The notes under the pieces were generated by a model. The model was not told the origin of the DNA. It ran no database searches and saw nothing but the letters and a program-made list of their open reading frames with translations. 64,000 nt of DNA from an uncultured Desulfobacula sp. (lineage in GTDB: Bacteria; Desulfobacterota; Desulfobacteria; Desulfobacterales; Desulfobacteraceae): assembly GCA_963674905.2 (NCBI GenBank), contig CAXXXR010000002.1:2658588-2722587 (forward strand). The letters are read 5' to 3'. Below are positions 1,067-29,175 of the stretch, piece after piece (position 1 is the stretch's first letter; every line of letters begins with the position of its first letter). Made by a program: the position numbers and the translations under genes.

Positions 1067-1154
1067 AGTGTTCACCGAACGGATTTGAGAACAAAACGCC
1101 GGCCATGGGCTTAAGCAAAGGAATCGTCACTATAAATCTGAGGAGGCAAAGAAA

Positions 1155-1946
1155 ATGAAATCCAGGATCACCACATCAACATTGATTAAAATGAAGCAGG
1201 AACAACAGAAAATTACCGCCCTCACCGCCTATGATTATCCGTTTGCTGCCATGCTGGATGAGGCGGGAATTGAGATCGTTCTGGTGGGAGACTCCCTGGG
1301 CATGGTGGTCCAGGGAAAGGAAAACACCCTCCCGGTGACCATGGATGAAGCCATCTATCACACCTCTATGGTGTCAAGGGCCTGCAAAGTTGCCATGGTG
1401 GTGGGAGACATGCCCTTCATGTCCTACCAGGGTTCCCTGGACCGGGCCGTTGAAAATGGGGGACGATTCCTCAAGGAAGCCGGGGCCTCCGCAGTAAAAC
1501 TTGAAGGCGGGGCTGATGTCTGCCCGGTGATCACTGCCCTTGCACGGGCGGGTATCCCGGTTCAGGGACATATCGGCCTGACTCCCCAGTCGGTGCATCA
1601 AATGGGGGGGTTCAAGGTCCAGCGGGATGAGGAGCGGCTGTTAAAGGATGCGGCAGATGTCCAGGCAGCCGGCGCTTTTTCCGTGGTGCTGGAAGGGATT
1701 CCATCGCCAATTTCCGCACGGATCACCCAGGCCCTTGACATTCCCACCATTGGTATCGGTGCCGGTGCTGAATGTGACGGCCAGATCCTGGTGCTGCACG
1801 ACATGCTGGGGATCAATGGCCGATTTTTGCCCAAGTTTGTGAAAAAATACGCCGATCTTGCCGGAGAGGCAAGAAAAGGTCTTGACCAGTATATCAAAGA
1901 GGTAAAAGGCGGGGAGTTTCCCTCAAAAGACTATGAATACAAGTAA
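1155..1946 (+). CDS. panB: 3-methyl-2-oxobutanoate hydroxymethyltransferase
   Basis: [29 protein letters not shown] and GIGAG..CDGQILV motifs; AGGAGG RBS upstream. Confidence 0.97.
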
Positions 1947-2847
1947 AAAATACCGGGAATTCTGTATCATCGGGTGCGGCCGTCTGGGGATCAATCTTGC
2001 CGTTTTTCTTGCCGGAAAGGGATTTGTTCCCATGGCCTTTTCAAGCAAAAGTCTTAAATCCGCAGACCAGGCTGTTGAATATGCGGGCCGGGGCAGGAGT
2101 TATGAAGACCCTGTGGAGGCCGTAAAAACCTGCAATCTTGTTTTTATCACCACCCCGGACACCCGTATTGAGCCGGTGTGCGAAAGGATTGCCAAAGAAA
2201 ACGGGTTTGGCCCTGAATCCGTGGTCTTTCACCTGTCCGGGGCCCTGTCTTCATGCATCCTGGCCCCGGCAAAAAACAGGGGTGCGGGTACGGGTTCCAT
2301 TCATCCCCTGCAGGCCTTTGCACCCTATGAAAGGGGACAGAAGTCTCCATTCAAGGGGATTAACATGTCCATTGAGGGGGATGACCGAGCCGTTGCACTG
2401 GGCAAGGAAATCGTTAATGCCCTAAAGGCCAACTTCTTTACCATTCCCACCCGGGCCAAAACCCTCTACCATGCCTCGGCCGTGGTGGCATCCAACTATC
2501 TGGTGACCCTGGAGCATTTTGCCCTGGAACTGCTCAAACAGGCAGACCTGACCGAAGAAAATGCCTATGAGATTCTGGAACCGCTGATCATGGGGACGTT
2601 GAACAATATCAAGGCCCGGGGCAGTATCAACGCCCTCACCGGTCCCGTGGCCCGGGGGGATGACGAGATCGTGTCCCGGCACCTGACCGATATTGATGGA
2701 CGACTCCCGCAATTTTCCCGTCTCTACCGGGTTCTGGGCAGACATACCCTGGATATTGCCCTTGCCGGAGCGGCCCGGGACCCAAGCAGTAATCGGATCA
2801 GTGACCAGGCCCGGCAAAGGCTGGGGGAGCTCTTTACCGATGGATAA
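1933..2847 (+). CDS. Rossmann-like + DUF2520 oxidoreductase, candidate PanG-type ketopantoate reductase
   Basis: GCGRLG dinucleotide-binding motif, [21 protein letters not shown] and LTGPVARGD; overlaps the panB stop. Confidence 0.85.
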
Positions 2848-2848
2848 C

Positions 2849-2880
2849 GCCGTCAAATCTTGAACAGATTTAACGGCTTT
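2849..2880 (+). terminator. Probable intrinsic terminator between convergent genes
   Basis: gccgtcaaatct-tgaac-agatttaacggc is a 12-bp stem with 1 mismatch followed by ttt; it overlaps the 3' end of the convergent peptidase gene. Confidence 0.55.
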
Positions 2881-5864
2881 CCCCCTGTTGCCAACTGGGC
2901 ATTGGCCTGTTCCAGGCTCTTCTGGCTTGCGATGACGGCCGTGCCCTTCTGGTTGTCATCAATGGAGAAATAGGTCTGGGCAATGGCCTGGACCCGTTTT
3001 TTGTCCAGCCCCAGCAGCACATCCTTGAACCGCCGGCGGATGGAGTCATCCAGCCGGGTGATATCCCTGTAAAAGGCTTTCATGGCTGCGGGTCCCGGGG
3101 TTTCCGGCTTGTCGATTTCGGAACAGACCTGGAGGATGGCCTCTTTGACATCGGTCTGGGTATAGTTCCCCTGGATGATAAAATCACAGGCATTCTGATA
3201 GACATCCAGGGTTCGTTTGATGTGGGGGTCCCGGTATGACCCAAAGGAAAACAATCCTTCCTCGGAGTTGTAAATGGCAAAACCGCCGTAGGCACCGCCC
3301 TTTTCCCTTATCTCCCGATGAAGGTACAGGGACCTGAGCAGTTTTGCGATCACGGCCAGTCCCGGAGAATCCTCGTGAACAATCCGGGCCGTTTTAAACG
3401 ACTGACCCACGAAGGAGACCGAGGTGTTGGTATGCCAGCCGTCATGGGGCCGGTCTGTTGCAAAGGAAATATTTGGCGTGAAAAAACAGGGTCCGGCATG
3501 GTTTGACCCGGGACCATTTGACCCAGCATCATTTAATAGGGCATCGTGAATGGATCTCACCCTTTTTTCGGCATCTAAAATGGCATCTTTTCCCCCAATG
3601 ACGGCGGGTTTGAAATTGTCTTTTTTCAGGATGGACTCACTTATGGTGAGCAGGTTTTGTGACAGGGTCTCAAGGGTCTTGTGACCATTATCTCCTGAAT
3701 CCAATTGTTCCGTGATTTTTTTGACCAGTTGGTACTGGGCCACACCGTGCCAGAGTTCGTTGATATAGGAGGCCCGGGACAGGTGCCGGGAGGCCAGGGA
3801 GATGGCATACCGATGGCCCGTGGATACAATGGAGGCTTCCATTCCGGCCTGGTATTGCAGCAAGAGATTTTTCAGCCGGTTAAAATCCTGGAAATCTGCG
3901 GACTCAATGAACTCCCTGATCAGGTCAAACATGGGCGCCACATTCCGGTCCAGGGATTTTCCCTGGATGGCCAGAAAGGAATGGGACTCGGCTTCCTGGG
4001 AAAAATAGGACCCTGAAAACGGTGATACCGATATTCCTCCGGTATACAGATCCATGAGTTTGGCGATCTTGTCGTAGGTGTTTTGCCTGGTGCCGCTGTT
4101 GGTCAAGGCCTGGCAGAAAAACGGGACCAGTCCGAACAGGTCAGCCGGGATACTGCCGGCACCCACGGGGCAGGTAAAGTAGAGTATCCCGGAAGTGGCC
4201 TTGTCATAACAGGTGGAAAGCGTGACATCCTTGATCGCATCGGGCTTTATGATTTCAATCTCCGGGGGTACGTCAACCAGTTCCAGGGTGGGCAGGATGG
4301 ACACATCTTCTTCCCGTTCCTGGAGTGCTTCAAGGGTTTTGGTGTCTCTTCGTATCTGTTCAAGATCCTGTTCGGTCATCTGCTTTAATTTGCCTGCAAG
4401 CTCCTGCCGGGTCGCTTCAATCGTTTTTGCGGCCAGGCCCGTGTCCGGCTCAAGTGTGAAAAGGACCCTGTGGGGGTTGTCAAGGAAATACTGCCGTAAT
4501 TTTGCCTCAAGAAAAGGACCTTTCGTCAGATGGGCCTTTAATGTGTCCAGGTCGTGATCAATGTTAATGCAGGACACGGGATCTCCGTCATGGATCAGGG
4601 TGCTTGCGAAGGATAGAAGCAATTTGATCCCAAAGGGGTAGGGGGTGTTGGTGATCTCTTTTCTGTGGAATTCGATTTGATGGATGGCCGAATCAATCAG
4701 GTTTTGATCGATTCCCTGGTCCGCCAGTGTTTGAAGGGTTGAAAATATGATCTCTTCCACCTGTTTGACGGAATTTTTGGTAATATCCTTTAACCCGCAG
4801 GCAAACATGGTGTCCCGGTTGTCCGGGTCAAACCCGGTGGAATCCGCCAGGGCAGACCCGAGAGACGAGTCGATGAGGGCCTTTTTTAAGGGAGACGCCG
4901 AGTTTCCCAGGAGAATCTGTTCCAGGACGGTGAGCACAAGAATTTCAAAGGAATCTTTGACATCACAGGTGAGCCAGGCCACACAGGCCTGGTATTTTTT
5001 TGACAGATCTTTTGGGTCGTCATAGGCATAGGCCTGGGTAATTTCTTTTGGTGCATCCCACCGGGGCTGGGATGGAACACTTGAATCAATGGAAATCGCA
5101 TCAAATTGGTCCAGGACCTTTTCAGCGATAAACCCCAGGGTGTTTTCCAGGGGCAGATTTCCATAGGTGTAGAAACAGGCGTTGGACGGGTGATAGTACC
5201 CGGCATGGAATTCCTTTAGACCTTCCCAGGTCAGGGCCGGGATGTCGGCGGGCTCCCCTCCGGAGTTGTTTCGATAGGTGGTGTCCGGGTAGAGTGCTGC
5301 CAGAAGAGATCTTCCCATGACCTGACCCGGAGAGGACATGGCCCCTTTCATCTCATTGTAGACCACCCCTTTGTATTCCAGTTCAATCTCTTTTCCGTCT
5401 GTCTCGACAATCTCCATGCGGTGGCCTTCCTGCTTAAAGCTCAACTCATCTATTCGCGGGAAAAAGGCGGCATCCAGGTAAACATTCATGAGGTTGTAGT
5501 AATCTTTTGTGTTCTGGGTGGCAAAGGGGTACATGGTCCAGTCCGATGCGGTAAAGGCATTCATAAAAGTGGACAGGCTCCGCTTGATCATGGAAAAGAA
5601 AGGGTCCCGGACATTGAATTTTTTAGACCCGCACAATACCGTATGCTCCAGAATATGGGCCACCCCGGAAGAATCCGTGGGCACGGTTCTGAAAAATACC
5701 CCAAAGGTGTTTTCCTTGTCCCGGCTCAGGATATGGATGTGCCGGGCCTTTGTCCGGTTGTGCACAAGCTGGATCATGGCGGAATCTATTGTTTCAAGGG
5801 GTGTGATCTTTTCCAGGGTATATCCGCAGATTTCCTGACCTGGTTTGAATGCAGTCGTGTCCAT
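2853..5864 (-). CDS. Insulinase-family (M16C) Zn metallopeptidase, presequence protease PreP-like
   Basis: Inverted zinc motif HILEH, PFFSMIKRSL.TFMNAFT, GVVYNEMKG and IREKGGAYGG; about 1000 aa. Confidence 0.92.
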   Translation of the reverse strand: MDTTAFKPGQEICGYTLEKITPLETIDSAMIQLVHNRTKARHIHILSRDKENTFGVFFRTVPTDSSGVAHILEHTVLCGSKKFNVRDPFFSMIKRSLSTFMNAFTASDWTMYPFATQNTKDYYNLMNVYLDAAFFPRIDELSFKQEGHRMEIVETDGKEIELEYKGVVYNEMKGAMSSPGQVMGRSLLAALYPDTTYRNNSGGEPADIPALTWEGLKEFHAGYYHPSNACFYTYGNLPLENTLGFIAEKVLDQFDAISIDSSVPSQPRWDAPKEITQAYAYDDPKDLSKKYQACVAWLTCDVKDSFEILVLTVLEQILLGNSASPLKKALIDSSLGSALADSTGFDPDNRDTMFACGLKDITKNSVKQVEEIIFSTLQTLADQGIDQNLIDSAIHQIEFHRKEITNTPYPFGIKLLLSFASTLIHDGDPVSCINIDHDLDTLKAHLTKGPFLEAKLRQYFLDNPHRVLFTLEPDTGLAAKTIEATRQELAGKLKQMTEQDLEQIRRDTKTLEALQEREEDVSILPTLELVDVPPEIEIIKPDAIKDVTLSTCYDKATSGILYFTCPVGAGSIPADLFGLVPFFCQALTNSGTRQNTYDKIAKLMDLYTGGISVSPFSGSYFSQEAESHSFLAIQGKSLDRNVAPMFDLIREFIESADFQDFNRLKNLLLQYQAGMEASIVSTGHRYAISLASRHLSRASYINELWHGVAQYQLVKKITEQLDSGDNGHKTLETLSQNLLTISESILKKDNFKPAVIGGKDAILDAEKRVRSIHDALLNDAGSNGPGSNHAGPCFFTPNISFATDRPHDGWHTNTSVSFVGQSFKTARIVHEDSPGLAVIAKLLRSLYLHREIREKGGAYGGFAIYNSEEGLFSFGSYRDPHIKRTLDVYQNACDFIIQGNYTQTDVKEAILQVCSEIDKPETPGPAAMKAFYRDITRLDDSIRRRFKDVLLGLDKKRVQAIAQTYFSIDDNQKGTAVIASQKSLEQANAQLATGGKPLNLFKI

Positions 5865-7496: not shown

Positions 7497-8939
7497 ATGA
7501 CGATGAGAATTTCCATAGACAATCTGATTGAAATTGTGAAGGGCGGCGGAAAAGTCAAGACCGGTGTGGATGTGTATAACTCAAAGAGTATCCTCCTGCT
7601 GGACAAGGATGTTCTTGTGGAAAAGGTAAAAATTCTCGAGATTATCAAAGAAAGCGGCATCAACTCGATTCCGGTGAATGCCGCCTCAAACGGTGGTCTC
7701 TGGGACGAAAAAGGGAATATGATTCAGATGGGGGCAGACGGGATGGTTGATCTGGATGCCCAGACAAGCCCTGCTTCTGGGGATACTGAAACAGAAGAAG
7801 AGGAACCCGTCCATGCCTTTCCCGATACCGCAGCCAATGAAATCGAGATGCGGCTCCATGAAATTGAAGAGATAAAACAGGAAGCCGGTAAAAAATACAA
7901 TACCGCAAAAACAAGCATTAAAAAAGTGCTCACAGACATCAAAAGTACAGGCGGTGAATTTGACTTTGATGAAGTCCAGAACAATGTTTCAGACCTGGTT
8001 GATTTCCTGGTGGTGGCGGATAATCCCTTTGCCTATCTGACCCAGGAGCTTTTTTCCTATGATGATTATCTGTACAATCACTGCATCAATGTGTGCACCA
8101 TTGGAACGGCGGTGGTCAACCGGTTTAATACCAGTTTTTCCCACATTGTCGATGATTTGATCAACGGCCATTCCGCCGATATTTATAATCCCTTTGAAAA
8201 GTCAGGCAAGAAACAGGAAAATTCATTTACCTGCTATTATGCCGATGATCTGAGTGATATCTCCCTGGGGTTTTTTCTTCACGATATCGGGAAAATCATC
8301 GTTCCCGACGAGGTGCTGAACAAAGAGGGGCGGCTGACTCCGGCTGAATTTGAACAGGTCAAGAGACATTCCTATGAACATGGTGTGAACCTTCTGGACA
8401 AGAACAAGCTGAAGAATTCCGTAATCCGGAACATCGTTAAATACCATCATGCCCCCCTGTACGAGGGGGAAGAACGGTGCTATCCTCTGGATAAAAAGCA
8501 TACCCAGATCCCTTTGTATGCCAGAATCTGCAAGCTGGCGGATATTTACGATGCCATGACATCCAAGCGGTGCTATAAAGAGGCCATCAACCCCATTTCA
8601 GTGGTGACCCGTTTGTTCAGGTCCTATGCCAAAAAAGACAGGATGCTTCAGTATATCCTCCACGCCTTTGTCAAGAGTATCGGGATCTATCCCCCGGGCA
8701 GTATCGTGTACCTGAGAAACGGTCAGATGGCCTATGTCCTTGAAAGTGCCGGGCCCATTGTTCTGCCCTTTACCGACGGAGACGAAAAGACCCTGACCCA
8801 AAAGCCTGATCCCATCAATGTCGGTTCACCGGGCATTGACGAACTGACCATGGTGGACAACAGAAGAAGCGTGAAAACCCCCAAAGACGTATATGAAATT
8901 CTTCCCCCATATATCAAAAAAATAACCGAAAGACCCTGA
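7497..8939 (+). CDS. HD-GYP domain protein (c-di-GMP phosphodiesterase-like)
   Basis: YLYNHCINV, LHDIGK, HH...CYP (GYP variant), LADIYDAMTSKRCYKEA and GIYPPGS; ATG 7497 chosen from its RBS. Confidence 0.85.
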   Translation: MTMRISIDNLIEIVKGGGKVKTGVDVYNSKSILLLDKDVLVEKVKILEIIKESGINSIPVNAASNGGLWDEKGNMIQMGADGMVDLDAQTSPASGDTETEEEEPVHAFPDTAANEIEMRLHEIEEIKQEAGKKYNTAKTSIKKVLTDIKSTGGEFDFDEVQNNVSDLVDFLVVADNPFAYLTQELFSYDDYLYNHCINVCTIGTAVVNRFNTSFSHIVDDLINGHSADIYNPFEKSGKKQENSFTCYYADDLSDISLGFFLHDIGKIIVPDEVLNKEGRLTPAEFEQVKRHSYEHGVNLLDKNKLKNSVIRNIVKYHHAPLYEGEERCYPLDKKHTQIPLYARICKLADIYDAMTSKRCYKEAINPISVVTRLFRSYAKKDRMLQYILHAFVKSIGIYPPGSIVYLRNGQMAYVLESAGPIVLPFTDGDEKTLTQKPDPINVGSPGIDELTMVDNRRSVKTPKDVYEILPPYIKKITERP

Positions 8940-18312: not shown

Positions 18313-20178
18313 ATGGAGTTATCGGTACAGCAGCAGGACGCAGTAAACCATACCGGCTCCCCGGCACTTGTGGTCGCGGGAGCCGGTTCAGGTAAGACAC
18401 GGACCCTTACGGCCAAGTTTTCACACCTTGTGAACCAGGGCCATGATCCGAAAAAGATTCTGGCCATCACCTTTACCAACAAGGCGGCCGACGAGATGAA
18501 GTCCAGGCTCATCAAAATGACGGGCCTGGGATACCAGAGCTTTCAATGGGTTCGCACCTACCACTCCGCCTGTCTGATGATCTTAAAACAGCATTGCGAA
18601 CGACTGGGATATACCCCTCCCATACTGGTTTTTTCCGTGTACCAGCAGCAGAAGCTGGTCAAGGAGTTGTGCGTGAAAAACAATATTGAAAAAAAGCACG
18701 TCAATAAAATTTTATCCCGTATTTCCCGGGCCAAGAATTTCGGGAATCCAACAAAATACTTTGACCTAAAACCCTCTTTTTTCAATGTCCGGATGGAAGA
18801 CCTGTTTGACCAGTATGAAGAGCGGCTCCAGGAGATGAATAGTGTGGATTTTGATAATATCCTGTTAAAGGCAAGAGATCTTTTAAGGGATCATTCAGAG
18901 GTCCGGGAGTTTTATCAGAATTATTTTTCCTATATCCTGGTGGATGAGTACCAGGACACCAACAATCTCCAGGATGAGCTAACTACCCTGTTGCTGGGAA
19001 GCCACCGGAACCTGTTCTGCGTGGGGGATGACTGGCAGGCGGTTTACGGATTCCGGGGTTCCAACGTCAACCATTTTTTGGGGTTTGGCGAAAAATACAG
19101 GGACTCCAAAATTTTCAGGCTCGAGGAAAATTACCGGTCTGCCGATGAAATCGTCCAGGCGGCCAATGACCTCATCGACCACAATCCGGACAAGATGGAC
19201 AAGCGCTGCTTTTCCCAGAAAAAAGGCGGGGTGATTGAAATCTATGATTTTATGTCCGATGTCAGTGAAGCTGAGTGGGTGGCCCGGCGGATCAAGGGGT
19301 TGAACCGCCATGGCCAGGGCATCAGCCTGGATAAGATCGCTGTGGTGTACCGGACAAAATTCTGTTCTCTTCCCTTTGAAAAAATTTTCAGGGCCTATCG
19401 GATTCCCTATAGTCTGAAGGGGTCCCAGGGGTTTTTTGAGCGCATGGAGGTGCTGGATATCAACTCCTATCTGAGCGCCGCGTTTTTCCCCAACGACGAT
19501 GTCTCGTTTGAGCGTATCGTCAACACCCCCAAACGGGGGATCGGGCCGTCCATGATCAAGAAGATGGCCGATATCCGGGCCCCGGGAATCAGCCTCCAGG
19601 ATGCGGCAAGAATCATGGTAAAGGATCGGGTGCTGACCCCGAAAATTCATGAAAATCTCTCCCGGGTGATCGAGGTCCTAGACGAGATCGTGGAGCTTCC
19701 CCCGGCCCGGGCCATGGAAGTGGTGATGGAAAGAATCGATTATCTTGACTATCTCAAGAAAAAAACCAAAACATCGGCCGAGTTTGTGTCCAAGCAGGAA
19801 AATCTCCAGCAGTTGATTTTCACGGCCAGGTCTAAAACCGATCTTCTGGAATACCTGGAAGAGGCGGCCCTGATCCGGGAGGACAAGGAAGACGATGAGG
19901 ATGATTCAGACGGTTCCGGCGTTTCCCTGCTCACCATCCATTCGGCCAAGGGCCTGGAATATGACACTGTATTTATCGTGGGGTGTGAAGAGCGGCTGTT
20001 TCCCCACTGGCGGTCCATTGATGCCGGTGATGCGGCTGTTTTCGAGGAAAGGCGGCTCATGTACGTGGCCATGACCCGGGCGGAGCGGTTTTTATACCTC
20101 ACCCATGCCAATTACAGGAAAGGTGAATTTGCCACCCCAAGCCGGTTCATCGATCAGATCCACGAGTATTTATTATAA
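18313..20178 (+). CDS. UvrD/PcrA-family SF1 DNA helicase
   Basis: AGAGSGKT, TFTNKAA, VDEYQDTN, VGDDWQ, LEENYRS, TIHSAKGLE and EERRLMYVAMTRA. Confidence 0.93.
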   Translation: MELSVQQQDAVNHTGSPALVVAGAGSGKTRTLTAKFSHLVNQGHDPKKILAITFTNKAADEMKSRLIKMTGLGYQSFQWVRTYHSACLMILKQHCERLGYTPPILVFSVYQQQKLVKELCVKNNIEKKHVNKILSRISRAKNFGNPTKYFDLKPSFFNVRMEDLFDQYEERLQEMNSVDFDNILLKARDLLRDHSEVREFYQNYFSYILVDEYQDTNNLQDELTTLLLGSHRNLFCVGDDWQAVYGFRGSNVNHFLGFGEKYRDSKIFRLEENYRSADEIVQAANDLIDHNPDKMDKRCFSQKKGGVIEIYDFMSDVSEAEWVARRIKGLNRHGQGISLDKIAVVYRTKFCSLPFEKIFRAYRIPYSLKGSQGFFERMEVLDINSYLSAAFFPNDDVSFERIVNTPKRGIGPSMIKKMADIRAPGISLQDAARIMVKDRVLTPKIHENLSRVIEVLDEIVELPPARAMEVVMERIDYLDYLKKKTKTSAEFVSKQENLQQLIFTARSKTDLLEYLEEAALIREDKEDDEDDSDGSGVSLLTIHSAKGLEYDTVFIVGCEERLFPHWRSIDAGDAAVFEERRLMYVAMTRAERFLYLTHANYRKGEFATPSRFIDQIHEYLL

Positions 20179-20198
20179 CTATCCTGAAACAGCAGAGG

Positions 20199-21443
20199 AT
20201 GAAAATGGCTGAATTTCCTTTCCTGCCCCAACCCCTGTCCGGGATTGCCCTGAAGTTTTTCCGCAGTGGAAAGGGCCTCATTCCCACGGATCAAAAAGGG
20301 ATTTTCATCACCCTGTTTTTTGCGATTTTTTCCACCGTGACCGGGGTGGGCATCGTGGTGCCGCTGCTGCCGGTGTATGCCAATGATCTGGGAGCCACCG
20401 GCATATACGTGGGTATGATATTCGGATCATTTTCCATCTCCAGAACCCTGCTGCTGCCCTATTTCGGAAGGCTTTCCGACCAGAAGGGCAGAAAGCCCTT
20501 TATTGTGACCGGCCTGTTTGTCTATACCCTGATCTCCATTGCATTTGTATTTTCAAAAAACGTGGAAACTCTTATCGGACTCAGGTTTATCCAGGGGGCG
20601 GCCTCAGCCATGATCATGCCTGTGGTCCAGGCCTATGTGGGAGAGATCACCCCCAAAGGTTCGGAAGGGTATTCCATGGGTCTGTTCAATCTGTCCATGT
20701 TTTTGAGCCTGAGCCTGGGCCCCCTGATGGGGGGTGTCATCAAAGACATCTGGTCCCTGGATGCCGCCTTTGTCTGCATGGGTGTCCTGTCCGGTGTGGG
20801 ACTGGTCCTGTGTGCCGTTTTCCTTCCCCCCAGGTCCCGGGAACAGGTCAAGACTTCGGCAAAGGGAGTGGTTTCCTGGTTCCATATTTTAAACGACCGG
20901 GATCTTGTGGCCATCTTTTTGTTCCGTTACGCCTACACCGCCTGCATCGGCGTGATCTGGTGTTTTCTGCCCCTGTTTGCCGACCGGGAATTCGGTCTTT
21001 CCGGTTCCCTCACCGGGGTCCTGGTCATGCTCGGGGTTTTTGTGTCCGGGATTCTCCAACTGCCCATGGGAGTTGTGGCAGACCGGTCCGACAAGCGGAT
21101 GATGATCGTTGCCGGGGGAATTCTGTCCAGCATCGGCATGGTCCTGCCGTTCTGGGCCGCTTCTTTTTCTGACCTGGTGATTGCCGTTTCAATTTTTGGT
21201 GTGGGCGGGGGGATTTCCATGCCCGCCATTATGGCCTGTGCCGTGATCAAGGGAGATGAACGAGAAGCCATGGGATCGGTGATTTCGGTCATGACCGTGG
21301 CCCACAGCCTGGGCATGCTCACAGGGTCCATGGCCGCCGGGCTGGCCATGGATTTTTTGAGCCTCCGCCTGTCTTTTCCCTGCGGAATGCTCATCATGGT
21401 CGTGGGCACTCTGGTGGTCCTGCTCTGTCTGAATAAAAAATAA
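20199..21443 (+). CDS. MFS transporter (DHA1/TetA-like)
   Basis: About 12 hydrophobic segments; motif A GRLSDQKGRK and a second-half DRSDKR. Confidence 0.88.
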   Translation: MKMAEFPFLPQPLSGIALKFFRSGKGLIPTDQKGIFITLFFAIFSTVTGVGIVVPLLPVYANDLGATGIYVGMIFGSFSISRTLLLPYFGRLSDQKGRKPFIVTGLFVYTLISIAFVFSKNVETLIGLRFIQGAASAMIMPVVQAYVGEITPKGSEGYSMGLFNLSMFLSLSLGPLMGGVIKDIWSLDAAFVCMGVLSGVGLVLCAVFLPPRSREQVKTSAKGVVSWFHILNDRDLVAIFLFRYAYTACIGVIWCFLPLFADREFGLSGSLTGVLVMLGVFVSGILQLPMGVVADRSDKRMMIVAGGILSSIGMVLPFWAASFSDLVIAVSIFGVGGGISMPAIMACAVIKGDEREAMGSVISVMTVAHSLGMLTGSMAAGLAMDFLSLRLSFPCGMLIMVVGTLVVLLCLNKK

Positions 21444-21504
21444 AACTCAAAAAAAACTGCCGGAGATTTGCCGACCAACGTCTTTTTATAGTCCGGTCGG
21501 GCAT

Positions 21505-21658
21505 GGGTTGCGACTCAGATGATTGGTCATTCCTACAGGGTCTAAATTCCGTTCCGCTGACCGGGAAAATTAGTTTTATTCAAAAACAAATTCCCGGTCT
21601 TGCGCTCCACTTCATCAAAACCCTGTACGGAAGGCCAATAAATTATTCCCTGCAACTC
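21505..21658. mobile_element. 154-bp MITE with ~37-bp imperfect terminal IRs and a 3-bp target duplication (CAT)
   Basis: Left end gggttgc...attggtcattcctacagggt; right end reverse-complements to gagttgc...attggccttccgtacagggt; cat at 21502-21504 and 21659-21661. Confidence 0.7.
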
Positions 21659-22000
21659 CATGCCCCGCCCTCCTCGATAGTTTTTACGATATTCAGGATA
21701 TCAAAAATGCGCTTATATGCCCTTCCTCAACTCCAATAAAGAACATTCTGAAATATGTTTTCTGATTAAATTATATTTTCACCAAAGGTGATCTTCAATA
21801 TCTTTACAGGTTTCGGTTGTTAAGAATCGAATAGTGTAACGCCAAAGCCCCGAATCAGTGACAAAATACTGTAACGGGTATATCCCGCGACCAAACCCCG
21901 CCAATAGCAAAAAAATATACCCCGCTATCCCGTCGACTGTTCCCAAGCTGCCGGTTTGCGTATGTTTTTTGTCCAGCTTTGAACGCTGGAGAATTTATGA

Positions 22001-22303
22001 TGGCAAAAAATATGCAGTCCGGCATGTCAGAAAGAACAGCATCGAAGACAGTCTGAAAAATGGAACAGGAAGAATAAGGCGTATTTCAAAAGCAACTATT
22101 TGGCTGATAAGATTGATGCGATTGAGCAAAAGGAACAATCGAAAGATCCACCCATTATTGCACAGCAATCAGATCAGACAAAACCGATTTTACCAATGGA
22201 TGTCATCCTGGCTCAGTGGGGGAAGAGGTCTGAGGTCATCATCCGATATCTGGTCTTCCAGGTCACTCGCCATGTTCGTATCCGGTATAGAAAAAATGCC
22301 TGA
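22001..22303 (+). pseudogene. Remnant of a small Cys-rich protein (WQKICSPACQKEQHRRQSEKWNRKNKAYFKSNYL...), no intact start
   Basis: Open frame after the TGA at 21998. The CxxxCQ...W..KN..YF..NYL pattern resembles small ORFs I recall in deltaproteobacterial IS21-linked elements (unverified). Confidence 0.35.
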
Positions 22304-22586
22304 TAACATCAGGTCGTTTATCCAAAGCAAAGTCCCGACATTCGTTTTCAGATATTCAAAAACAGTGGAAAGAAAATATTTTGCAAACACCTGTCCGTAT
22401 TGCAATGTTATTTACGGCGACTTTTTTCTGCATGATGAAGCTGGGATCCCTTTTTTCCCCGCTGATGAGGACGACGCCAAGTTGCTATATATCAAAGAGA
22501 TTCCTATAAACGGACCCTTTGAAATCGAAGGTGGGGCAGGATCCGGAACGGGAGAAATGATTCTGGATCATGCAATACGAGTATGA
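22272..22586 (+). pseudogene. Probable 5'-truncated gene: C-terminal part resembling DUF5710-associated proteins
   Basis: FRYSKTV...YFANTCPYC...GDFFLHDE.G.PFFP is protein-like, whereas the upstream part of ORF 21858-22586 is not. Confidence 0.45.
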
Positions 22587-22725
22587 GTGCAACAACCATT
22601 AAAAATCTCACAATTATAATTTGTTTTGAACGATCAATTTCATAAACATTGACAAAAAAGCATGCCTTATGTAATTCATTTCAGATGAACCTTCTTTATA
22701 CGCCACAAAATGAGAAAGTATTCTA

Positions 22726-25710
22726 ATGATATCAAATAATTCTCAAATTAGTTTTAATGCGCTTCTTGAAAAATTTGAGATGATATCTGAAGGATACAAG
22801 TCTCCGAGTCTATTGTTACCCAATGACCTTCATTTGTCGGATAGTGACAAAATTATTTTAGAACAGGCGGGGAAATATAATGTTGATGCGGTATATGTAA
22901 GGCAATTCAATGATGGACGAACCTCTATCCCACAAATATACATATATGATTTTATAAAAAACCCCAGGAAAGATAATGAGATAACAGAACTGTATCGAAA
23001 AATTTGGAACTCCGGGCATGTTCCTCTTATTTTTTTATTTTTTAAAACAGAAATTCAAATATTAACCTGTTTAAAACAACCAGATTTCGATCCTAAAACC
23101 GGAAATCTTGCATATAGCCTATTTGAAAAGATTCATTTGGCGTCGAAAGCAAAAAAAGAGTTGGATAAATTTAAACGATTATCTGCTAGACGGTTTGATA
23201 ATGGCTCATTCTGGACTGACTCAAAATATAAAAGCAAATTTTCGTTAAAAGAGACTGCCTATATAAAGCTTTTAACTGAACTCAAAACAGCCAAACGAGA
23301 TATCATTAAAAAAGAGATTCTGGATGAGAATCTTACAAAAAAACTTCTTGTGATGTCGATTCTTGTCAAATACCTTGAAGAGAGAAAGGATAAAGACGGT
23401 AACAAAGTTTTTCCCAAAAGGTTTTTTATCAAATTTTCAAATGGGGAGGATAATTTTTTAGATGTCCTTCGTAAAAAAGGAGGATGCCTTCGATTATTTG
23501 ATGAACTGAGCAGCAAGAATAGTTTTAATGGAGAAATTTTTGCCTGGAACGGCAAAAAAGAAAGAGAGCAGTTAGCCGAAGCAGACTTGAACTCTTTTGC
23601 CGAATTTTTTGAAGGGCGGCTTGATAATGGTCAGTACACTTTTTGGCGGCTTTATTCATTTAATGATTTACCCATCGAGCTCATCAGTAATATCTATGAG
23701 GAATTTTTAGATAAAAAAGCCGGAGTCGTTTACACGCCGCCTTATTTGGTCAATTTGCTTATCGACGAGCTACTGCCGTTGTCTGATTTCGGAAAAAAAG
23801 AATTTAAGGTGTTGGATCCTGCGTGTGGGTCAGGTATTTTCCTGGTGGCCGCATACAAAAGGATGATTCAGTGGTGGAAAATCCGCAACAATTGGGCCAA
23901 ACCTGATTCCCAGAACTTAAATGAACTAAAAGAAATTTTAAAAAATAACATTTTTGGTGTTGATATTCACGAAGAAGCCGTACGCTTAACGTTTTTCAGC
24001 CTTAGTTTGGTGCTTTTAGATGAATTGTCACCAAAGGTTATCTGGGAAAATTTAAAATTTGATAATCTTATTGGGAACAATTTCATCAGCAATGATTTTT
24101 TTGAACTAATTGAGAACGATTTACTAAAGCCGGAATTCGATCTTATTGTGGGGAATCCTCCCTTTGAATCAAAATTGACAGATAGCGCAGCAAGGATTGA
24201 AAACAAAAGACGCCGGACGTATCCAAAATTACCGGATAATCAAATCGCACTGCTTCTTCTGGACCAGTCTATCACCCTGTGCAAAGAAAATGCATCTCTT
24301 TGTTTGATAATGCCGTCAGGCCCCTTTTTATACAATACCAATTCTGCTGATTTTCGAACTTATTTTTTTAACAAGTATCATGTTCCGCAGCTAATTGATT
24401 TTACGTTCCTCAGCCAGGTCCTTTTTGAGAGCGCAAACGTGCCGGTCACAGCGGTTTTTGCAAAGAATCAAAAGCCTGATGAAACAGACATCCTTCATGT
24501 TACGGTCCGCAGGACAAAACCAGCCAAAGAAAAGCTCTACTTTGAATTGGACCACTATGATTTTCATAAGGTGCCTTTTAAGGACGCTTTAAAAAGCAGG
24601 CTTGTCTGGAAAGCCAATTTGCTGGGAGGCGGCAGGCTAAGGCAGCTTTTGGACAGACTGGAACCCATCCGAAGTTTTGGTGCATTTCTATCTGAAAAAG
24701 AGCAGAATGACGGGTGGAAAATCGCAGAGGGATTTATCGTTGGAAATAAAGAGAAAATTGATACGCTTGTTAAATTGAAAGAAAAAGCGCCGGAATTATC
24801 TGATGAGGAAAACCTGAAGTTGAAGGAACTTGAAAAGAAGTTTCAACCAGCAGAATACCTTACCGGGAAAAATACACTGCCAACGGATGCATTCACAGAA
24901 GATGGCATCAATGACAATGAAATCTACAAACTTGAAAACAAATATTTTTATCGGAGTAGCAAAAAGAATAAAGAAATTTTTGAAGCCCCTCATCTTCTTA
25001 TAAAGGAAGGCGTATCAGAGACTTCAATTCCAGTAATATTTCGGGAAGACGACCTTTCCTTCAGGCATGAAATAATCGGTATTCATGCTCCGAATCAAGC
25101 AGAGGCTCTCAAAAAAATAGAAAACCGTTTCAGGAATAACAGAACATACCTTTTTCATGTTGCCGGATTCAGCAGCAGGTATATGATCACCAGAGCTACG
25201 GCCTTTCTAAAAAATGATATTGAATGCCTGCCTTACCCTGAGGATGAGACAGAGCTTAATCTATCGGATCTCGAACAAATTCTTATGGATGATGTGCTTG
25301 ATTATATGCTTGATTTCAGGAGAAAGGGCGAAAATGCGGACTCGGAAAAACCGGTAACACAGGGCCAGTTGAAACTATTTTCCAATGTCTATTGTAAGGT
25401 TTTGAATTCTGTTTATAAAAACATCAAACCGTATCACTCTTTTGAAACAAAATCATATATCTGCTTTCCTTTTTATTTTGATGATCCTTCATCCATTGCG
25501 CTTCAAAAAACCAAGGGGCTTGAAGACGATCTTGATGAACTGATCAAAAATAATGTGAGTTCTAATTCAAGAATCATTCGAATGCTTCGAATTTATGAAA
25601 ATAATATTATTTATCTTATTAAACCTAAGCAGACGCGCTATTGGTTACGTTCGGTTGCAATTCGGGATGCTGACGAAACCTTTTCTGATTTAGTGAACCA
25701 AGGGTTTTAA
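22726..25710 (+). CDS. Large N6-adenine DNA methyltransferase (gamma class, type IIG/HsdM-like, probable fused specificity domain)
   Basis: ISNIYE, GVVYTPPYLV, motif I VLDPACGSGIFL, FGVDI and motif IV IVGNPPF; 994 aa; AT-rich. Confidence 0.9.
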   Translation: MISNNSQISFNALLEKFEMISEGYKSPSLLLPNDLHLSDSDKIILEQAGKYNVDAVYVRQFNDGRTSIPQIYIYDFIKNPRKDNEITELYRKIWNSGHVPLIFLFFKTEIQILTCLKQPDFDPKTGNLAYSLFEKIHLASKAKKELDKFKRLSARRFDNGSFWTDSKYKSKFSLKETAYIKLLTELKTAKRDIIKKEILDENLTKKLLVMSILVKYLEERKDKDGNKVFPKRFFIKFSNGEDNFLDVLRKKGGCLRLFDELSSKNSFNGEIFAWNGKKEREQLAEADLNSFAEFFEGRLDNGQYTFWRLYSFNDLPIELISNIYEEFLDKKAGVVYTPPYLVNLLIDELLPLSDFGKKEFKVLDPACGSGIFLVAAYKRMIQWWKIRNNWAKPDSQNLNELKEILKNNIFGVDIHEEAVRLTFFSLSLVLLDELSPKVIWENLKFDNLIGNNFISNDFFELIENDLLKPEFDLIVGNPPFESKLTDSAARIENKRRRTYPKLPDNQIALLLLDQSITLCKENASLCLIMPSGPFLYNTNSADFRTYFFNKYHVPQLIDFTFLSQVLFESANVPVTAVFAKNQKPDETDILHVTVRRTKPAKEKLYFELDHYDFHKVPFKDALKSRLVWKANLLGGGRLRQLLDRLEPIRSFGAFLSEKEQNDGWKIAEGFIVGNKEKIDTLVKLKEKAPELSDEENLKLKELEKKFQPAEYLTGKNTLPTDAFTEDGINDNEIYKLENKYFYRSSKKNKEIFEAPHLLIKEGVSETSIPVIFREDDLSFRHEIIGIHAPNQAEALKKIENRFRNNRTYLFHVAGFSSRYMITRATAFLKNDIECLPYPEDETELNLSDLEQILMDDVLDYMLDFRRKGENADSEKPVTQGQLKLFSNVYCKVLNSVYKNIKPYHSFETKSYICFPFYFDDPSSIALQKTKGLEDDLDELIKNNVSSNSRIIRMLRIYENNIIYLIKPKQTRYWLRSVAIRDADETFSDLVNQGF

Positions 25711-25712
25711 TA

Positions 25713-26420
25713 ATGTTCAATGAAAAATATGAATCAGAAGTATCTGGCAGATTATCCGGACCTTACATACCTGAGTTTGACACATCGATCAAAGAGGTGA
25801 TTCTATTCATAGAAAAAAATCTCATTATTTTTTCTGAATCTATTGCGGTGTCCCAAATTCAAAATGAAAAAGGCCTCACACAAACGCTTGTCCAAATTCT
25901 CAATTTAAACGCCATGGGAGGATTTTCACCCTTTTGGTTCGAAAAAGAGTATATGGAAAATCCAGACAGGGGCGACAGCCCCTCGGTTGATATAGGTACG
26001 CTAAAAGTTGATAGTAGCGGTAATGTTATCAATTCAGTAGTTCTTGGAAATAAATCCTTTTATTCGATCGAGGCCAAAAGATTGCCCACACCAGGCAGTA
26101 ATAGAGAAAAAGAATATGTAATCGGTTCAAAAAACAATGGTGGAATTGAGCGCTTCAAAACCGGGAGACATGGATCTGAGCTAAAACACAGTGGAATGAT
26201 TGGGTTTGTTCAGAAAAATGATTTTAAATACTGGAATAAAAAAATTAACGAGTGGATTGTTGAGTTGACACAGACAAATAGCGAATCTGATATAAACTGG
26301 TATGAATCTGAGATTTTAATTCCTCAACATTTTAAAAAGACCACAGCTCAATTGATTTCGAAACACGAAAGAATGAACAAATCATACATATCTTTGTGTC
26401 ATTTATGGGTGTGCTTATGA
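25713..26420 (+). CDS. Hypothetical protein with a PD-(D/E)xK nuclease-like signature
   Basis: NEKGLT...E...SVDIG...IEAKRL, then EYV, GGIERFK.G.H and GMIGFV; starts 2 bp after the MTase stop. Confidence 0.65.
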   Translation: MFNEKYESEVSGRLSGPYIPEFDTSIKEVILFIEKNLIIFSESIAVSQIQNEKGLTQTLVQILNLNAMGGFSPFWFEKEYMENPDRGDSPSVDIGTLKVDSSGNVINSVVLGNKSFYSIEAKRLPTPGSNREKEYVIGSKNNGGIERFKTGRHGSELKHSGMIGFVQKNDFKYWNKKINEWIVELTQTNSESDINWYESEILIPQHFKKTTAQLISKHERMNKSYISLCHLWVCL

Positions 26421-26445
26421 ATGGCGGAATCAAGGACAGTAAACG

Positions 26446-27122
26446 ATGAATCAGTATCAAACAGATTATTCCAATGAAGTTCACCAACTAATTGTAACAC
26501 CATCAAAACATTTTTTCGTCACACGCAATGGCATTTTAAAATATCAAAAGAAACCCTTTGAAATAAAGCTTGAAAATTGTAACAATTTCAAAAAGACGCA
26601 TATAATTCATTATCTTATCAGAGATCATTTTAGCGGGTTGGTTTACTACGAGACATGTACATCTGATGCAGCAATCCCAATTCATGAATTTCTATTTAGA
26701 TCCTGGACTAAAAAGGAAAACAACCTTTCTATGGAATGCCTTCCTGTATGACTATCCCTAAAAATGTCCAACTATTTTTCCCTGGTTTGGTGAATTTTGT
26801 TGAAACATTGGGTATTGATTTCATAAAAGTCACAAGCGGTTTTCAAGGGGGTGTTCGCGACATAAGAACGATAGAAGATGAATTAAGATGCGCTGGATTG
26901 TTTTTGGGGAATCCTGAACAATTTCAGACTGAATTACCTTTTGAACTGATTTTAGAAAAATCATACGAAATCTGTTCCAGGCTTTCAGATAATTTTTATC
27001 GAAAACCGTCAAAAAAAGAAACTTGGTTCTCGGGCTTTGGTTCTGAACAAAAAATAAACATCCCCGAATCTTTAGAAATATTCAAAACTACATATCAAAG
27101 CATCGTGGAATCAGAATTTTGA
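26446..27122 (+). pseudogene. Frameshifted hypothetical gene (ORFs 26446-26751 + 26736-27122), integrase-core/RNase H-like
   Basis: Adding one base in the A-runs at 26710-26720 joins ...HYLIRDHFSGLVYYE...FLFRSWTKK to (E/G)KQPFYGMPSCMTIPK...; the second frame opens right after TAA at 26709. Confidence 0.6.
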
Positions 27123-27160
27123 TAGATAGAAACTTGAAAGCATACATATTCAAGAGTAAA

Positions 27161-27210
27161 TCCTAACAAAAAAATGCTGACGGGCAAGCCGCAGATTTTT
27201 GTGGTTGGGC
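27161..27210 (+). mobile_element. attC: Short attC-like integron cassette recombination site
   Basis: R'' TCCTAAC and R' GTTGGGC (exact GTTRRRY); arms aaaat[G]ctg[A]cgg / ccg-cag-atttt pair with two extrahelical bases; 39 bp downstream of a stop codon; only 50 bp long. Confidence 0.6.
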
Positions 27211-27215
27211 ATCCG

Positions 27216-27253
27216 TAATCACGCTTGACGTTAATCACGCAATGCGTTAATAT
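27216..27253 (+). promoter_or_regulatory. higBA promoter with probable operator
   Basis: TTGACG (27225-27230), 17 bp, TAATAT (27248-27253); direct repeat taatcacgc x2 (27216, 27232); palindrome acgca-a-tgcgt (27237-27247). Confidence 0.7.
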
Positions 27254-27259
27254 ATACCC

Positions 27260-27538
27260 ATGATAAAATCTTTCAAATGCAAATATACAAAAGCACTTTC
27301 GAAAGGCCAACGTGTTAAGCAGTTCGTAAATATTGAAAATGTTGCACGGCGTAAACTTAGGCAGCTTGAAATTGCTGGTCGAATTGAAGATTTGAGAGTC
27401 CCACCCGGAAATCACCTTGAAATGCTCAAAGGTTACCGTTCCGGCCAACACAGTATTCGAATAAACGATCAGTGGCGCCTTTGCTTCTGCTGGACGGATG
27501 CAGGTGCGGAAAATGTGGAGATAGTTGATTACCACTGA
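27260..27538 (+). CDS. higB: RelE/ParE-family toxin HigB
   Basis: MIKSFK, ARRKL..L, DLRVPPGNHLE.LKG.RSGQHSIRINDQWRLCF.W and VEIVDYH. Confidence 0.95.
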   Translation: MIKSFKCKYTKALSKGQRVKQFVNIENVARRKLRQLEIAGRIEDLRVPPGNHLEMLKGYRSGQHSIRINDQWRLCFCWTDAGAENVEIVDYH

Positions 27539-27550
27539 GGAGGATGTATT

Positions 27551-27862
27551 ATGAATAAGCTTAAACCGATTACACCGGGCGAGATTCTTTTGGAAGAATT
27601 TCTCAAGCCTATGGGTATCAGTCAATATCGTTTAGCCAAGGAAATAGACGTTCCTGCTCAGCGCATCAGTGAAATTGTTGCCGGGAAGCGCTCGGTTACT
27701 GCTGATACAGATTTACGGCTATGTCGATTTTTTGGTTTATCCAATGGGTACTGGCTTCGAGCACAAGCTGCTCACGATACGGAAATAGCCGAGCGAACCC
27801 TGAATGATATCATCATAAAAATCAGACCCTGGTCTGAGCATGTTGCCCAGCCAAACGCTTGA
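27551..27862 (+). CDS. higA: HigA addiction-module antitoxin (HTH)
   Basis: PITPGEILLEEFLKPMGISQYRLAK, RISEIVAGKR.VTADT.LRL.RFFG and W...Q..HD; GAGGAGG RBS. Confidence 0.95.
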   Translation: MNKLKPITPGEILLEEFLKPMGISQYRLAKEIDVPAQRISEIVAGKRSVTADTDLRLCRFFGLSNGYWLRAQAAHDTEIAERTLNDIIIKIRPWSEHVAQPNA

Positions 27863-27973
27863 GAGGGACTGGGCTTACTGAGCGGCTTTTCGCAAATATG
27901 TGGTTTGAAAAATAAAAACTATTATCTGAGGTTCCGGGTTCAAGACGCCCGGCCCCTCAGCTCCACGTTAGCC
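27845..27973 (+). mobile_element. attC: Long (129-bp) attC-like site closing the higBA cassette
   Basis: R'' GCCCAGC (AAC>AGC variant) overlaps the higA 3' end; L arm gcttgagagggactgggc pairs with gcccggcccctcagc via bulges; ends tcagctccac-GTTAGCC. Confidence 0.72.
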
Positions 27974-28182
27974 CTTTTGTTCTATAAACACACATTAAAT
28001 TCAGACCTCCTGACATCAGGCATTTTTAAATGCAAAATATGCCGCCTGAAAAACAAGTTTGGTTCAATTTTTTAAAACCTCACCTCTCGCAGATGAAAAC
28101 ATTGACGTGTCGAGGAATAAAGATATTCCAAGGGATATGGAAAATCCAGAGATGTCACGGCGGTGCTGTAAAAAGCCTCCTT

Positions 28183-29175
28183 CTAAACGGGTGTGGCTTC
28201 AGTGCCGGTCAGGGGGAAGTGACAGGCCACAAATTCACCCGGCCCGATTTCCCGCAGCCCGGGCAATGTGGTCCGGCAGATGTCTTTGGCGTAGGCACAC
28301 CGGTTTTCAAATCCGCATCCCTTTGGGAGGTTAAAGGGGCTGGGCACTTCTCCCTGGACTTTAGGGGCCCGGATTTCTGCAAGGGGGTCTGCCGTATACA
28401 CAGAGTCCATCAGGACTTTTGTATAGGGATGCCGGGGTTTTTGGCGGGACAGATCGGCTGAAATGATTTCCACGATTCTGCCCAGGTACATAACGATGAT
28501 GCGCTGGCAGAAATAATCCACCAGGGCCAGGTCATGGGAAATAAACAGATAGGTCATGTCGAACTGATCGCCCAGTTCCTGGAGAAGCAGGATAATCTGG
28601 GCCTGAACCGAGACATCCAGGGCTGCCGTGGGCTCATCCAGAATGATGAATTCCGGGACCAGGGCCAGGGCCCGGGCAATGACGGCCCGCTGTTTCTGGC
28701 CGCCGGAGAGCTGGTGGGGATAGGCCCGGCAGTGCTCCGGTTTCAGGCCCACCATGCCCAGGAGTTCCAATATCCGTTCATTTATCTTTTCCTGGGGAAT
28801 GGGGACCTTTTGAATCTTGAACACCTCTTCCAGACTCCGGTAAATGGAATTTCTGGGGTCAAGAGATGAATGGGGGTCCTGGAACACCATCTGCATTTTC
28901 CGCCTCAACCTGCGCAGCCGGGTTTTTGAAATCTGATTGATCTTTTGTCCGTCAAAGAGAATGTCGCCGAAAGAGGGTTTGATCAGGTTTAAAATGAGTC
29001 TGGCAAGGGTGGATTTGCCGCATCCGGATTCGCCCACAACCCCCAGGGATTCTCCCTTGAAAATATCAAAAGAAACATCATTCACAGCCTTTACCTCGCC
29101 GATTTTCCGGTGCATGAGTCCGCCGGTCACCGGGAAAAATTTGGACAGGTTCCGGACTTGAACAAGGGGCTTCAT
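28183..29175 (-). CDS. Peptide/nickel ABC transporter ATP-binding subunit (DppF/OppF-like)
   Basis: [23 protein letters not shown] and HPYT...C.F..RC; ATG 29175 overlaps the upstream TGA. Confidence 0.92.

Follow-up and report, generated by a model that had tools for sequence, protein, structure and literature searches.

We examined a 64-kb stretch of DNA from an uncultured Desulfobacula sp. (contig CAXXXR010000002.1; the whole stretch is hereafter called the window), in which a higBA toxin-antitoxin operon lies between two candidate integron recombination sites, attC1 and attC2, each closing what appears to be a gene cassette. The features of these two cassettes, with the evidence by which each was placed, are as follows.

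~26428-27204, + strand: cassette 1, a gene followed by attC1; DNA homology to other loci begins at ~26428
26446-27122, + strand: cassette-1 gene for a protein of ~224 aa of no known family, frameshifted near 26719-26740 (tblastn against homologs)
26446-26751 and 26736-27122, + strand: the two open reading frames (ORFs) of the split cassette-1 gene, of 101 aa and 128 aa
27161-27210, + strand: attC1, the attC of cassette 1, 50 nt (covariance-model alignment, homology and context)
27204-27210, + strand: R' box of attC1, GTTGGGC, with the crossover between G27204 and T27205
27205-27967, + strand: cassette 2, 763 bp, made up of a promoter-like site, higB, higA and attC2 (homology between arrays)
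27225-27253, + strand: promoter-like site TTGACG-17-TAATAT with repeated CGTTAAT motifs, of presumed promoter function (consensus scan)
27260-27538, + strand: higB, RelE-like toxin, 92 aa (PF05015, E 4.6e-18)
27551-27862, + strand: higA, helix-turn-helix (HTH) antitoxin of the HTH_3 type, 103 aa (PF01381, E 4.7e-9)
27845-27973, + strand: attC2, 129 nt, resembling the Vibrio cholerae repeat (VCR), with three extrahelical bases (covariance-model alignment and homology)
27967-27973, + strand: R' box of attC2, GTTAGCC

The toxin gene stands first in the higB-higA bicistron, with a gap of 12 nt before the antitoxin gene, and by their family matches the two would form a HigBA type II toxin-antitoxin pair. 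A protein search with HigA returned at least 8000 matches at E <= 1e-10, the best 120 of which are 80-96% identical and come from many metagenome contigs. The promoter-like site is kept in all homologs of the cassette, and the stretch ATCACGCTTGACGTTAATCA is invariant among the window and three related loci (L102, L103 and L104; loci outside the window are cited by such numbers throughout).

The bottom strand of an attC site folds as a bulged hairpin composed of an R box, an unpaired spacer and an L box with extrahelical bases; the integron integrase binds this hairpin and cleaves the R' box between G and TT (top strand). A cassette leaves as a circle when two attCs recombine, and is inserted when an attC recombines with attI or with another attC. 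As a reference we took 16 attCs from clinical class-1 arrays on plasmids (aadA1, aadA2, aadA16, lnu(F), blaIMP-8, blaIMP-22, aac(6')-Ib, aac(6')-IIa, dfrA14, dfrA27, arr-3, blaGES-5, cmlA5, blaVIM-1, orfD and blaOXA-2), nearly all of which have a 7-bp R box, a 5-nt 5' spacer, a 5-6-nt 3' spacer and an L box of 3 bp, an extrahelical base and then 6 bp or 3+3 bp. Both sites of the window continue after the 5-nt spacer with 3 bp, an extrahelical base, 3 bp, a second extrahelical base and 3 bp, the extrahelical bases lying on the L'' side, which is the layout of the aac(6')-Ib, blaVIM-1 and blaOXA-2 attCs. With extrahelical bases in parentheses, attC1 reads R'' TCCTAAC, spacer AAAAA, L'' AAT(G)CTG(A)CGG, loop GCAAG, L' CCGCAGATT, spacer TTTGTG and R' GTTGGGC, and its inverted core sites match in full the mutually pairing RYYYAAC and GTTRRRY expected of an attC. 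attC2 reads R'' GCCCAGC, spacer CAAAC, L'' GCT(T)GAG(A)GGG(A)C..., L' ending in GCCCCTCAGC, spacer TCCAC and R' GTTAGCC; the match of its core sites is partial, with AGC in place of AAC in R'' and the pairing kept by a G-T wobble. We take its L box, AGAGGGAC, with three extrahelical bases 3 bp apart, to be VCR-like, a resemblance that serves as a lead and not as a test.

The original prediction, made from the DNA letters alone, had described two co-oriented RYYYAAC/GTTRRRY sites with bulged arms, each just after a stop codon, enclosing exactly a self-promoted higBA operon. Both sites were recovered, with full cores at attC1; at attC2 the R'' box is a partial match, and CCAAAC, probably the motif that had been taken for it, belongs to the spacer, the true R'' being GCCCAGC by comparison with relatives, in which it reads GCCCAAC. 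The placement of the sites after stop codons had to be corrected, in that attC1 starts 39 nt past the stop (27122) of the upstream ORF and attC2 starts 17 nt ahead of the end of higA, with the TGA (27860-27862) inside L'' and the last six higA codons overlapping R'', spacer and L''. The account of the intervening DNA stood, given the PF05015 and HTH_3 matches and the conserved, putative promoter. Folding of the bottom strands, suggested there as a check, gives attC1 a predicted minimum-energy structure that is the attC fold, with a probability of the recombinogenic fold (pfold) of 0.22, whereas attC2 is predicted to misfold (~2e-8, against 0.24 for its homolog on plasmid pHRM2a, 1e-4 for its homolog in L102 and 0.05-0.5 for two clinical attCs). 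Unconstrained folding z-scores were unremarkable for both sites.

IntegronFinder accepts an attC at a covariance-model E <= 1; in place of its model we used two home-made ones, R1, built from the 16 class-1 attCs only, and R2, built from 37 class-1 and pHRM2a hits. The attCs were aligned as arm-anchored sequences with N-run centres, plain MAFFT alignments being structurally wrong. Applied to pHRM2a, R1 found 14 attCs (E 4e-13 to 0.04), every one of which runs in the same direction as an array of small genes. In a search of 128 kb with R2, attC2 ranked first (26.0 bits, E 9e-4) and attC1 second (14.3 bits, E 0.43, E-values from a home-made model being rough), both on the + strand, with the next match at E 9.8. 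Across 1.12 Mb of related genomes, searched with default filters that may miss weak matches, R2 gave four hits; a recognisable integron setting surrounds three of these, of which two flank a cassette ORF in L063 and one lies beside intI in L070. A scanner of geometry alone returned exactly attC1 and attC2 in the window (1-2 hits); dinucleotide shuffles gave 0.41 (strict) or 1.56 (relaxed) hits per window, and geometry alone therefore proves nothing. By blastn, neither site has another copy in the window or across 1.1 Mb of relatives. The significance of the sites comes from their position and homology, not from their score, and it is on context and homology that attC1 in particular was accepted.

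Comparison with other arrays places the cassette boundaries to the base. The window (27204-27963) is 89.4% identical to L102 (1567-2322), an alignment that opens with the G of the upstream R' box and stops within 4 nt of the downstream one, and 82% identical to L104 over 27204-27849, a match that also starts at 27204. Both L102 and L104 carry higBA within co-oriented metagenomic arrays with attCs of 25-37 bits on either side, the former together with hicAB and mazEF and the latter with a second higB-HTH pair, and the attCs upstream of higBA in L102, L104 and the window are mutually unrelated. The source sample itself (runs X1 and X2) contains a second higBA variant, ~92-94% identical over 27204-27740 and present at 2-3x depth, which has the 3' end of another attC-like site ahead of it and parts from the window sequence at precisely 27204. 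Conversely, attC1 precedes other cassettes elsewhere: the attC of L105 is homologous to it and a 90%-identical copy lies at the left end of L102, and in both loci the similarity stops at GTT, the next cassette starting TTATAT... where the window has TTGGGC.... Homologs of the cassette-1 gene, moreover, precede attCs of 49-52 nt, which score 21.1 bits (E 0.004) in L105, 33.2 bits in L109 and weakly in L106. attC2 is homologous to the L102 attC along its full length, and its positions 27856-27972 match an intergenic element of pHRM2a at 85.7% identity (E 2e-27); this similarity stops at GTTAGC, and the class-1-only model R1 scores the plasmid element at 25.4 bits (E 8e-5).

The higBA cassette, a widely dispersed one, and attC1 thus each occur in different arrays with boundaries at G/TT, as expected of an ORF-plus-attC unit. 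Such breakpoints on both sides, in several independent contexts, are on sequence comparison the footprint of attC x attC exchange. Since attC1 precedes other cassettes elsewhere and higBA follows other attCs, with the switch at G/TT each time, both cassettes would have come to this locus by attC exchange, a mechanism that is established for integrons.

A cluster of attC sites lacking integron integrase (CALIN) is defined as at least two attC sites less than 4 kb apart with no intI within 4 kb. The attCs of the window are 634 bp apart and co-oriented, and tblastn with IntI1 and the Desulfobacterales IntI of L070 found no tyrosine recombinase, integron integrase or remnant of one in the 64 kb; matches were weak, and the two ORFs checked beneath the best of them encode a DUF4178 protein and an ATP-binding cassette (ABC) ATPase. 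Taken together, these results make it very probable that the region represents the last two cassettes of a CALIN in a Desulfobacula-like chromosome, an assignment that depends on accepting attC1. The same had been proposed in the original prediction, which spoke of a relic array in a sulfate reducer with no tyrosine recombinase gene in the window: the integrase search agrees with the latter claim, the R2 ranking, the homologs in other arrays and the G/TT boundaries bear out the CALIN, and the degenerating changes of attC2 and the frameshifted cassette-1 gene suit the word relic.

At the left edge of the low-GC stretch that holds the cassettes, a 78-aa ORF (21503-21739, + strand) is 31% identical over 58 aa to the catalytic region of IntI1, which is not significant. 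A degraded intI at this left end was considered and rejected, the best tblastn match there (21562-21714) having an E of 0.35 and no Pfam family.

Compared with its relatives, attC2 has a C-to-T change in the L'' extension, lacks 1 nt of the 3' spacer and has lost the AAC of R'' through a synonymous CAA-to-CAG change in a Gln codon of higA. The C-to-T change of the L'' extension and the A-to-G change of R'', both specific to attC2 (window 27845-27874), together create a perfect local inverted repeat, GCCCAG...CTGGGC, over the higA stop codon, which rivals the attC fold. From its sequence attC2 looks decayed. A scan of metagenomes for the exact pattern of its 3' arm gave no match; another attC of the same family (match 27922-27969) lies on a separate contig of the source sample. 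Given the lack of an integrase in 64 kb, the decay and predicted misfolding of attC2 and the broken cassette-1 gene, we infer that the array is now largely frozen, and its recombination activity is probably low. attC1 appears to be still in good shape, and an integrase supplied in trans would be expected to recognise it. The higBA pair would be expressed from its own promoter and could act as an addiction module, making loss of the region costly.

Several observations weigh against the assignment to a CALIN. On the side of the models, R1 gives attC1 no more than 7.8 bits (~E 12 for the whole window) and places attC2 at the top of the window with a weak 12.7 bits (E 0.52, filters off); R2 was trained with the pHRM2a homolog of attC2 among its sequences, which inflates the score of attC2, and R2 also finds decoys of 13-15 bits within housekeeping genes of a relative, for which reason the score of attC1 alone does not discriminate. 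attC1 is shorter than every training attC, and its A-tract and T-tract flanks are also what a weak intrinsic terminator might have. For the bottom strand of attC2, local hairpins are predicted to win over the attC fold (-20.7 vs -9.5 kcal/mol, with DNA energy parameters). As to the surroundings, neither an attC nor an attI was found to mark where cassette 1 begins, the source-sample contigs (runs X1 and X2) show no excision or circle junction, and several close relatives of higBA retain only the 5' arm of the attC.

The alternative that survives best, which we regard as possible though doubtful, is that the array is the distal part or a satellite of a complete integron whose intI lies outside the window, and that an integrase acting in trans could mobilise attC1-bounded cassettes. 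An IntegronFinder survey enters Desulfobacula toluolica Tol2 with two intI genes that have no attCs (In0; PMC5371416, Data Set S1), the L070 relative has an intI beside the ortholog of a major facilitator superfamily (MFS) transporter gene of the window, and the source sample holds further attCs of the same family as well as another copy of the higBA cassette. These points are set against the lack of any intI or remnant within 64 kb, the presence of two attCs only, with none in the 5.7 kb upstream, and the decay of both attC2 and the cassette-1 gene.

We consider it improbable that attC1 is an intrinsic terminator or a chance hairpin, which would leave attC2 as the sole real attC without an integrase (SALIN). 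The stem CTG(A)CGG/CCGCAG does lie between an A-run and TTTTTGTGG, the scores are low in R1 (7.8 bits) and R2 (E 0.43) and are equalled by decoys, and ~0.4 such geometric sites are expected per shuffled window. A terminator scan, however, made no call there, and the R' box coincides to the base with the start of homology among higBA cassettes from separate arrays. In L102 and L105, copies that are near-identical or homologous to attC1 precede other cassettes, with the switch at GTT, and homologs of the cassette-1 gene carry attCs of 49-52 nt that reach 33 bits. A 14-bit covariance-model match is expected ~0.4 times per window; the chance of one on the correct strand within the 137-nt spacer ahead of higB is ~5e-4. 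That both sites are some other palindromic repeat (of the repetitive extragenic palindrome or miniature inverted-repeat transposable element kind) or regulatory hairpins of the toxin-antitoxin genes, unrelated to integrons, is hardly credible: in L094-L096 higBA has inverted TGTCCCC / GGGGACA motifs on its flanks and no attC 3' arm, and at every locus examined higA comes with the 5' arm of attC2, but the class-1-only model finds the attC2 homolog (E 8e-5) and 13 further co-oriented sites in the lnu(F)-bearing array of pHRM2a, no further copy exists in the window or 1.1 Mb of relatives, and the breakpoints fall at G/TT.

Returning to the CALIN, its cassette 1 adjoins a type IIG restriction block, and further features upstream are these.

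21858-22586, + strand: ORF without a family match (ORF list, Pfam and PADLOC scans)
22726-25710, + strand: type IIG restriction-methyltransferase, 994 aa (Pfam Eco57I and N6_Mtase; PADLOC REase_MTase_IIG, E 6e-42)
25713-26420, + strand: 235-aa partner ORF of the type IIG enzyme

Most homologs of the cassette-1 gene are single ORFs of ~220 aa, and by tblastn the 101-aa and 128-aa ORFs of the window correspond to the N-terminal and C-terminal parts of the intact genes in L106, L109 and L110. The protein has no match among Pfam and PADLOC families. Its gene is frameshifted or deleted in three genomes, namely in the window, in L105, where it is broken, and in L111, where it has a 489-bp deletion. 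In several arrays it is the last gene before a short attC, and elsewhere it follows varied defence-like genes (AbiJ-like, RhuM-like, or a Mu F-like gene with a 162-aa gene). No further attC was found in 21300-28300, including the positions between and upstream of the type IIG genes, which leaves the left end of cassette 1 unmarked. Desulfobacterales bacterium RIFOXYA12_FULL_46_15 (L111-L113) has the type IIG block with remains of the cassette-1 gene at 87-90% identity, in a different genomic context and without attC1 and higBA. The evidence is compatible with a fused multi-gene cassette as well as with an unrelated neighbour; with no upstream attC, and with the block occurring elsewhere without attC1 and higBA, the suggestion that the type IIG block arrived through the array has no support either way.

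The type IIG block and both cassettes occupy a low-GC stretch (~21450-28050; 31-47% GC against ~54% for the genome), all genes of which are on the + strand and which is bounded by the MFS gene on the left and by a convergent ABC-transporter operon (from 28183) on the right. The uvrD and MFS genes (18313-21443) encode proteins 73-86% identical to those of Desulfobacula metagenome-assembled genomes and are syntenic there. This uvrD-MFS pair is conserved among 80 relatives, and synteny ends after the MFS gene, none of the 80 sharing anything downstream; no empty-site comparator was found by synteny among them. ARAGORN found no tRNA gene in the window and no tRNA or tmRNA fragment at attC2 that could mark an island attachment site. 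The window has no match to an Rfam family, and exact-protein look-ups of its proteins found no record.

Integron parts also lie directly upstream of the MFS ortholog in three more distant relatives: in L070 at 47-117 (-), 627-1631 (+) and 1879-3033 (+), in L063 at 232-988 and in L071 at 693-748. The intI of L070, beside the MFS ortholog, is 45% identical to IntI1, and the attCs of the three loci score 25-46 bits. Unlike these upstream parts, the cassettes of the window lie downstream of the MFS gene. The proximity of integron parts to this gene may be a coincidence or a recurrent neighbourhood.

CALINs were defined for IntegronFinder (PMC4889954), are common (PMC4889954, PMC9668308) and are on record from chromosomes of Desulfobacterales (PMC5371416, Data Set S1). 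The array of the window is like them in having at least two co-oriented attCs after co-oriented ORFs, no nearby intI and signs of decay; it differs in its minimum size of two attCs, in its missing left boundary and in that one of the sites is accepted only once the model, which is not that of IntegronFinder, is extended with Desulfobacteraceae attCs. The pHRM2a array of Desulforapulum autotrophicum HRM2 (NC_012109.1 ~46400-65000; L081/L082), with at least 14 co-oriented attCs and no intI, offers the closest comparison at attC2. It shares with the window an attC that is 86% identical to attC2 and cassettes of toxin-antitoxin or defence-like character (HigB, RelE/ParE, TIR, GIY-YIG). It is unlike the window in that its attC2 homolog stands between an unrelated 142-aa ORF, upstream, and a HigB from a different family, downstream, and in that it has its 14 or more attCs, with lnu(F) among the cassettes, on a mobilisable plasmid. 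The lnu(F)/linG cassette of pHRM2a is 99.4% identical over 941 bp to clinical class-1 cassettes, and this identity ends at the R' boxes of the flanking attCs. A full-text literature search found no paper linking Desulforapulum autotrophicum HRM2 with integrons.

Self-promoted toxin-antitoxin cassettes, higBA included, are a classic of the Vibrio cholerae superintegron and are thought to stabilise arrays; the work on them reportedly includes that of Christensen-Dalsgaard and Gerdes in 2006, of Szekeres in 2007 and of Guerout in 2013. The cassette described here resembles them as a type II pair with its own promoter-like site in a cassette that ends in an attC. The host phylum (Thermodesulfobacteriota), the number of cassettes (two against hundreds) and the lack of an integrase set the locus apart from the superintegron, as does the occurrence of this higBA family alone beside defence and housekeeping genes. 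Loot and colleagues are said to have described, in 2024, cassette insertion outside integrons at secondary GTT sites (attG). The locus is like such insertions in having chromosomal cassettes without attI or intI and a left boundary without an attC; an empty site for the comparison was lacking, synteny breaking after the MFS gene in 80 of 80 relatives.

The higBA relatives that retain the 5' arm only stand alone beside Zorya or BrxE genes, beside another toxin-antitoxin pair or amid housekeeping genes. The closest relatives of all (91% DNA identity; L094 ~7590-8470, L095 and L096) have no attC 3' arm, and their higBA, between the inverted TGTCCCC / GGGGACA motifs mentioned above, lies beside Zorya (ZorA-like) or BrxE genes. 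The copies flanked by these motifs hint at a second vehicle for the higBA module. On a more speculative view, which we hold to be unlikely as a whole, higBA-attC would be a promiscuous, self-stabilising family in Desulfobacterota that spreads within arrays and at non-integron sites by defence systems (Zorya, BrxE, type IIG), then loses the attC 3' arm and becomes fixed, and the type IIG, 235-aa and 224-aa genes would together make up a single multi-gene defence cassette that has lost its own upstream attC.

An integrase-less array of this kind is well known, and the finding leaves the knowledge of integrons unchanged. Its most useful by-product is the pHRM2a array, in which a clinical lnu(F) cassette stands among environmental cassettes in a marine sulfate reducer. 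The locus itself illustrates the decay of an array, in that a synonymous change in higA destroys the AAC of R'', 1 nt is lost from a spacer and a frameshift breaks the cassette-1 gene. It also offers a base-resolved case of cassette exchange in a phylum whose integrons are known mostly from automated surveys, with the same toxin-antitoxin cassette and attC families spanning a chromosome, the plasmid of a cultured sulfate reducer and several metagenomic arrays.

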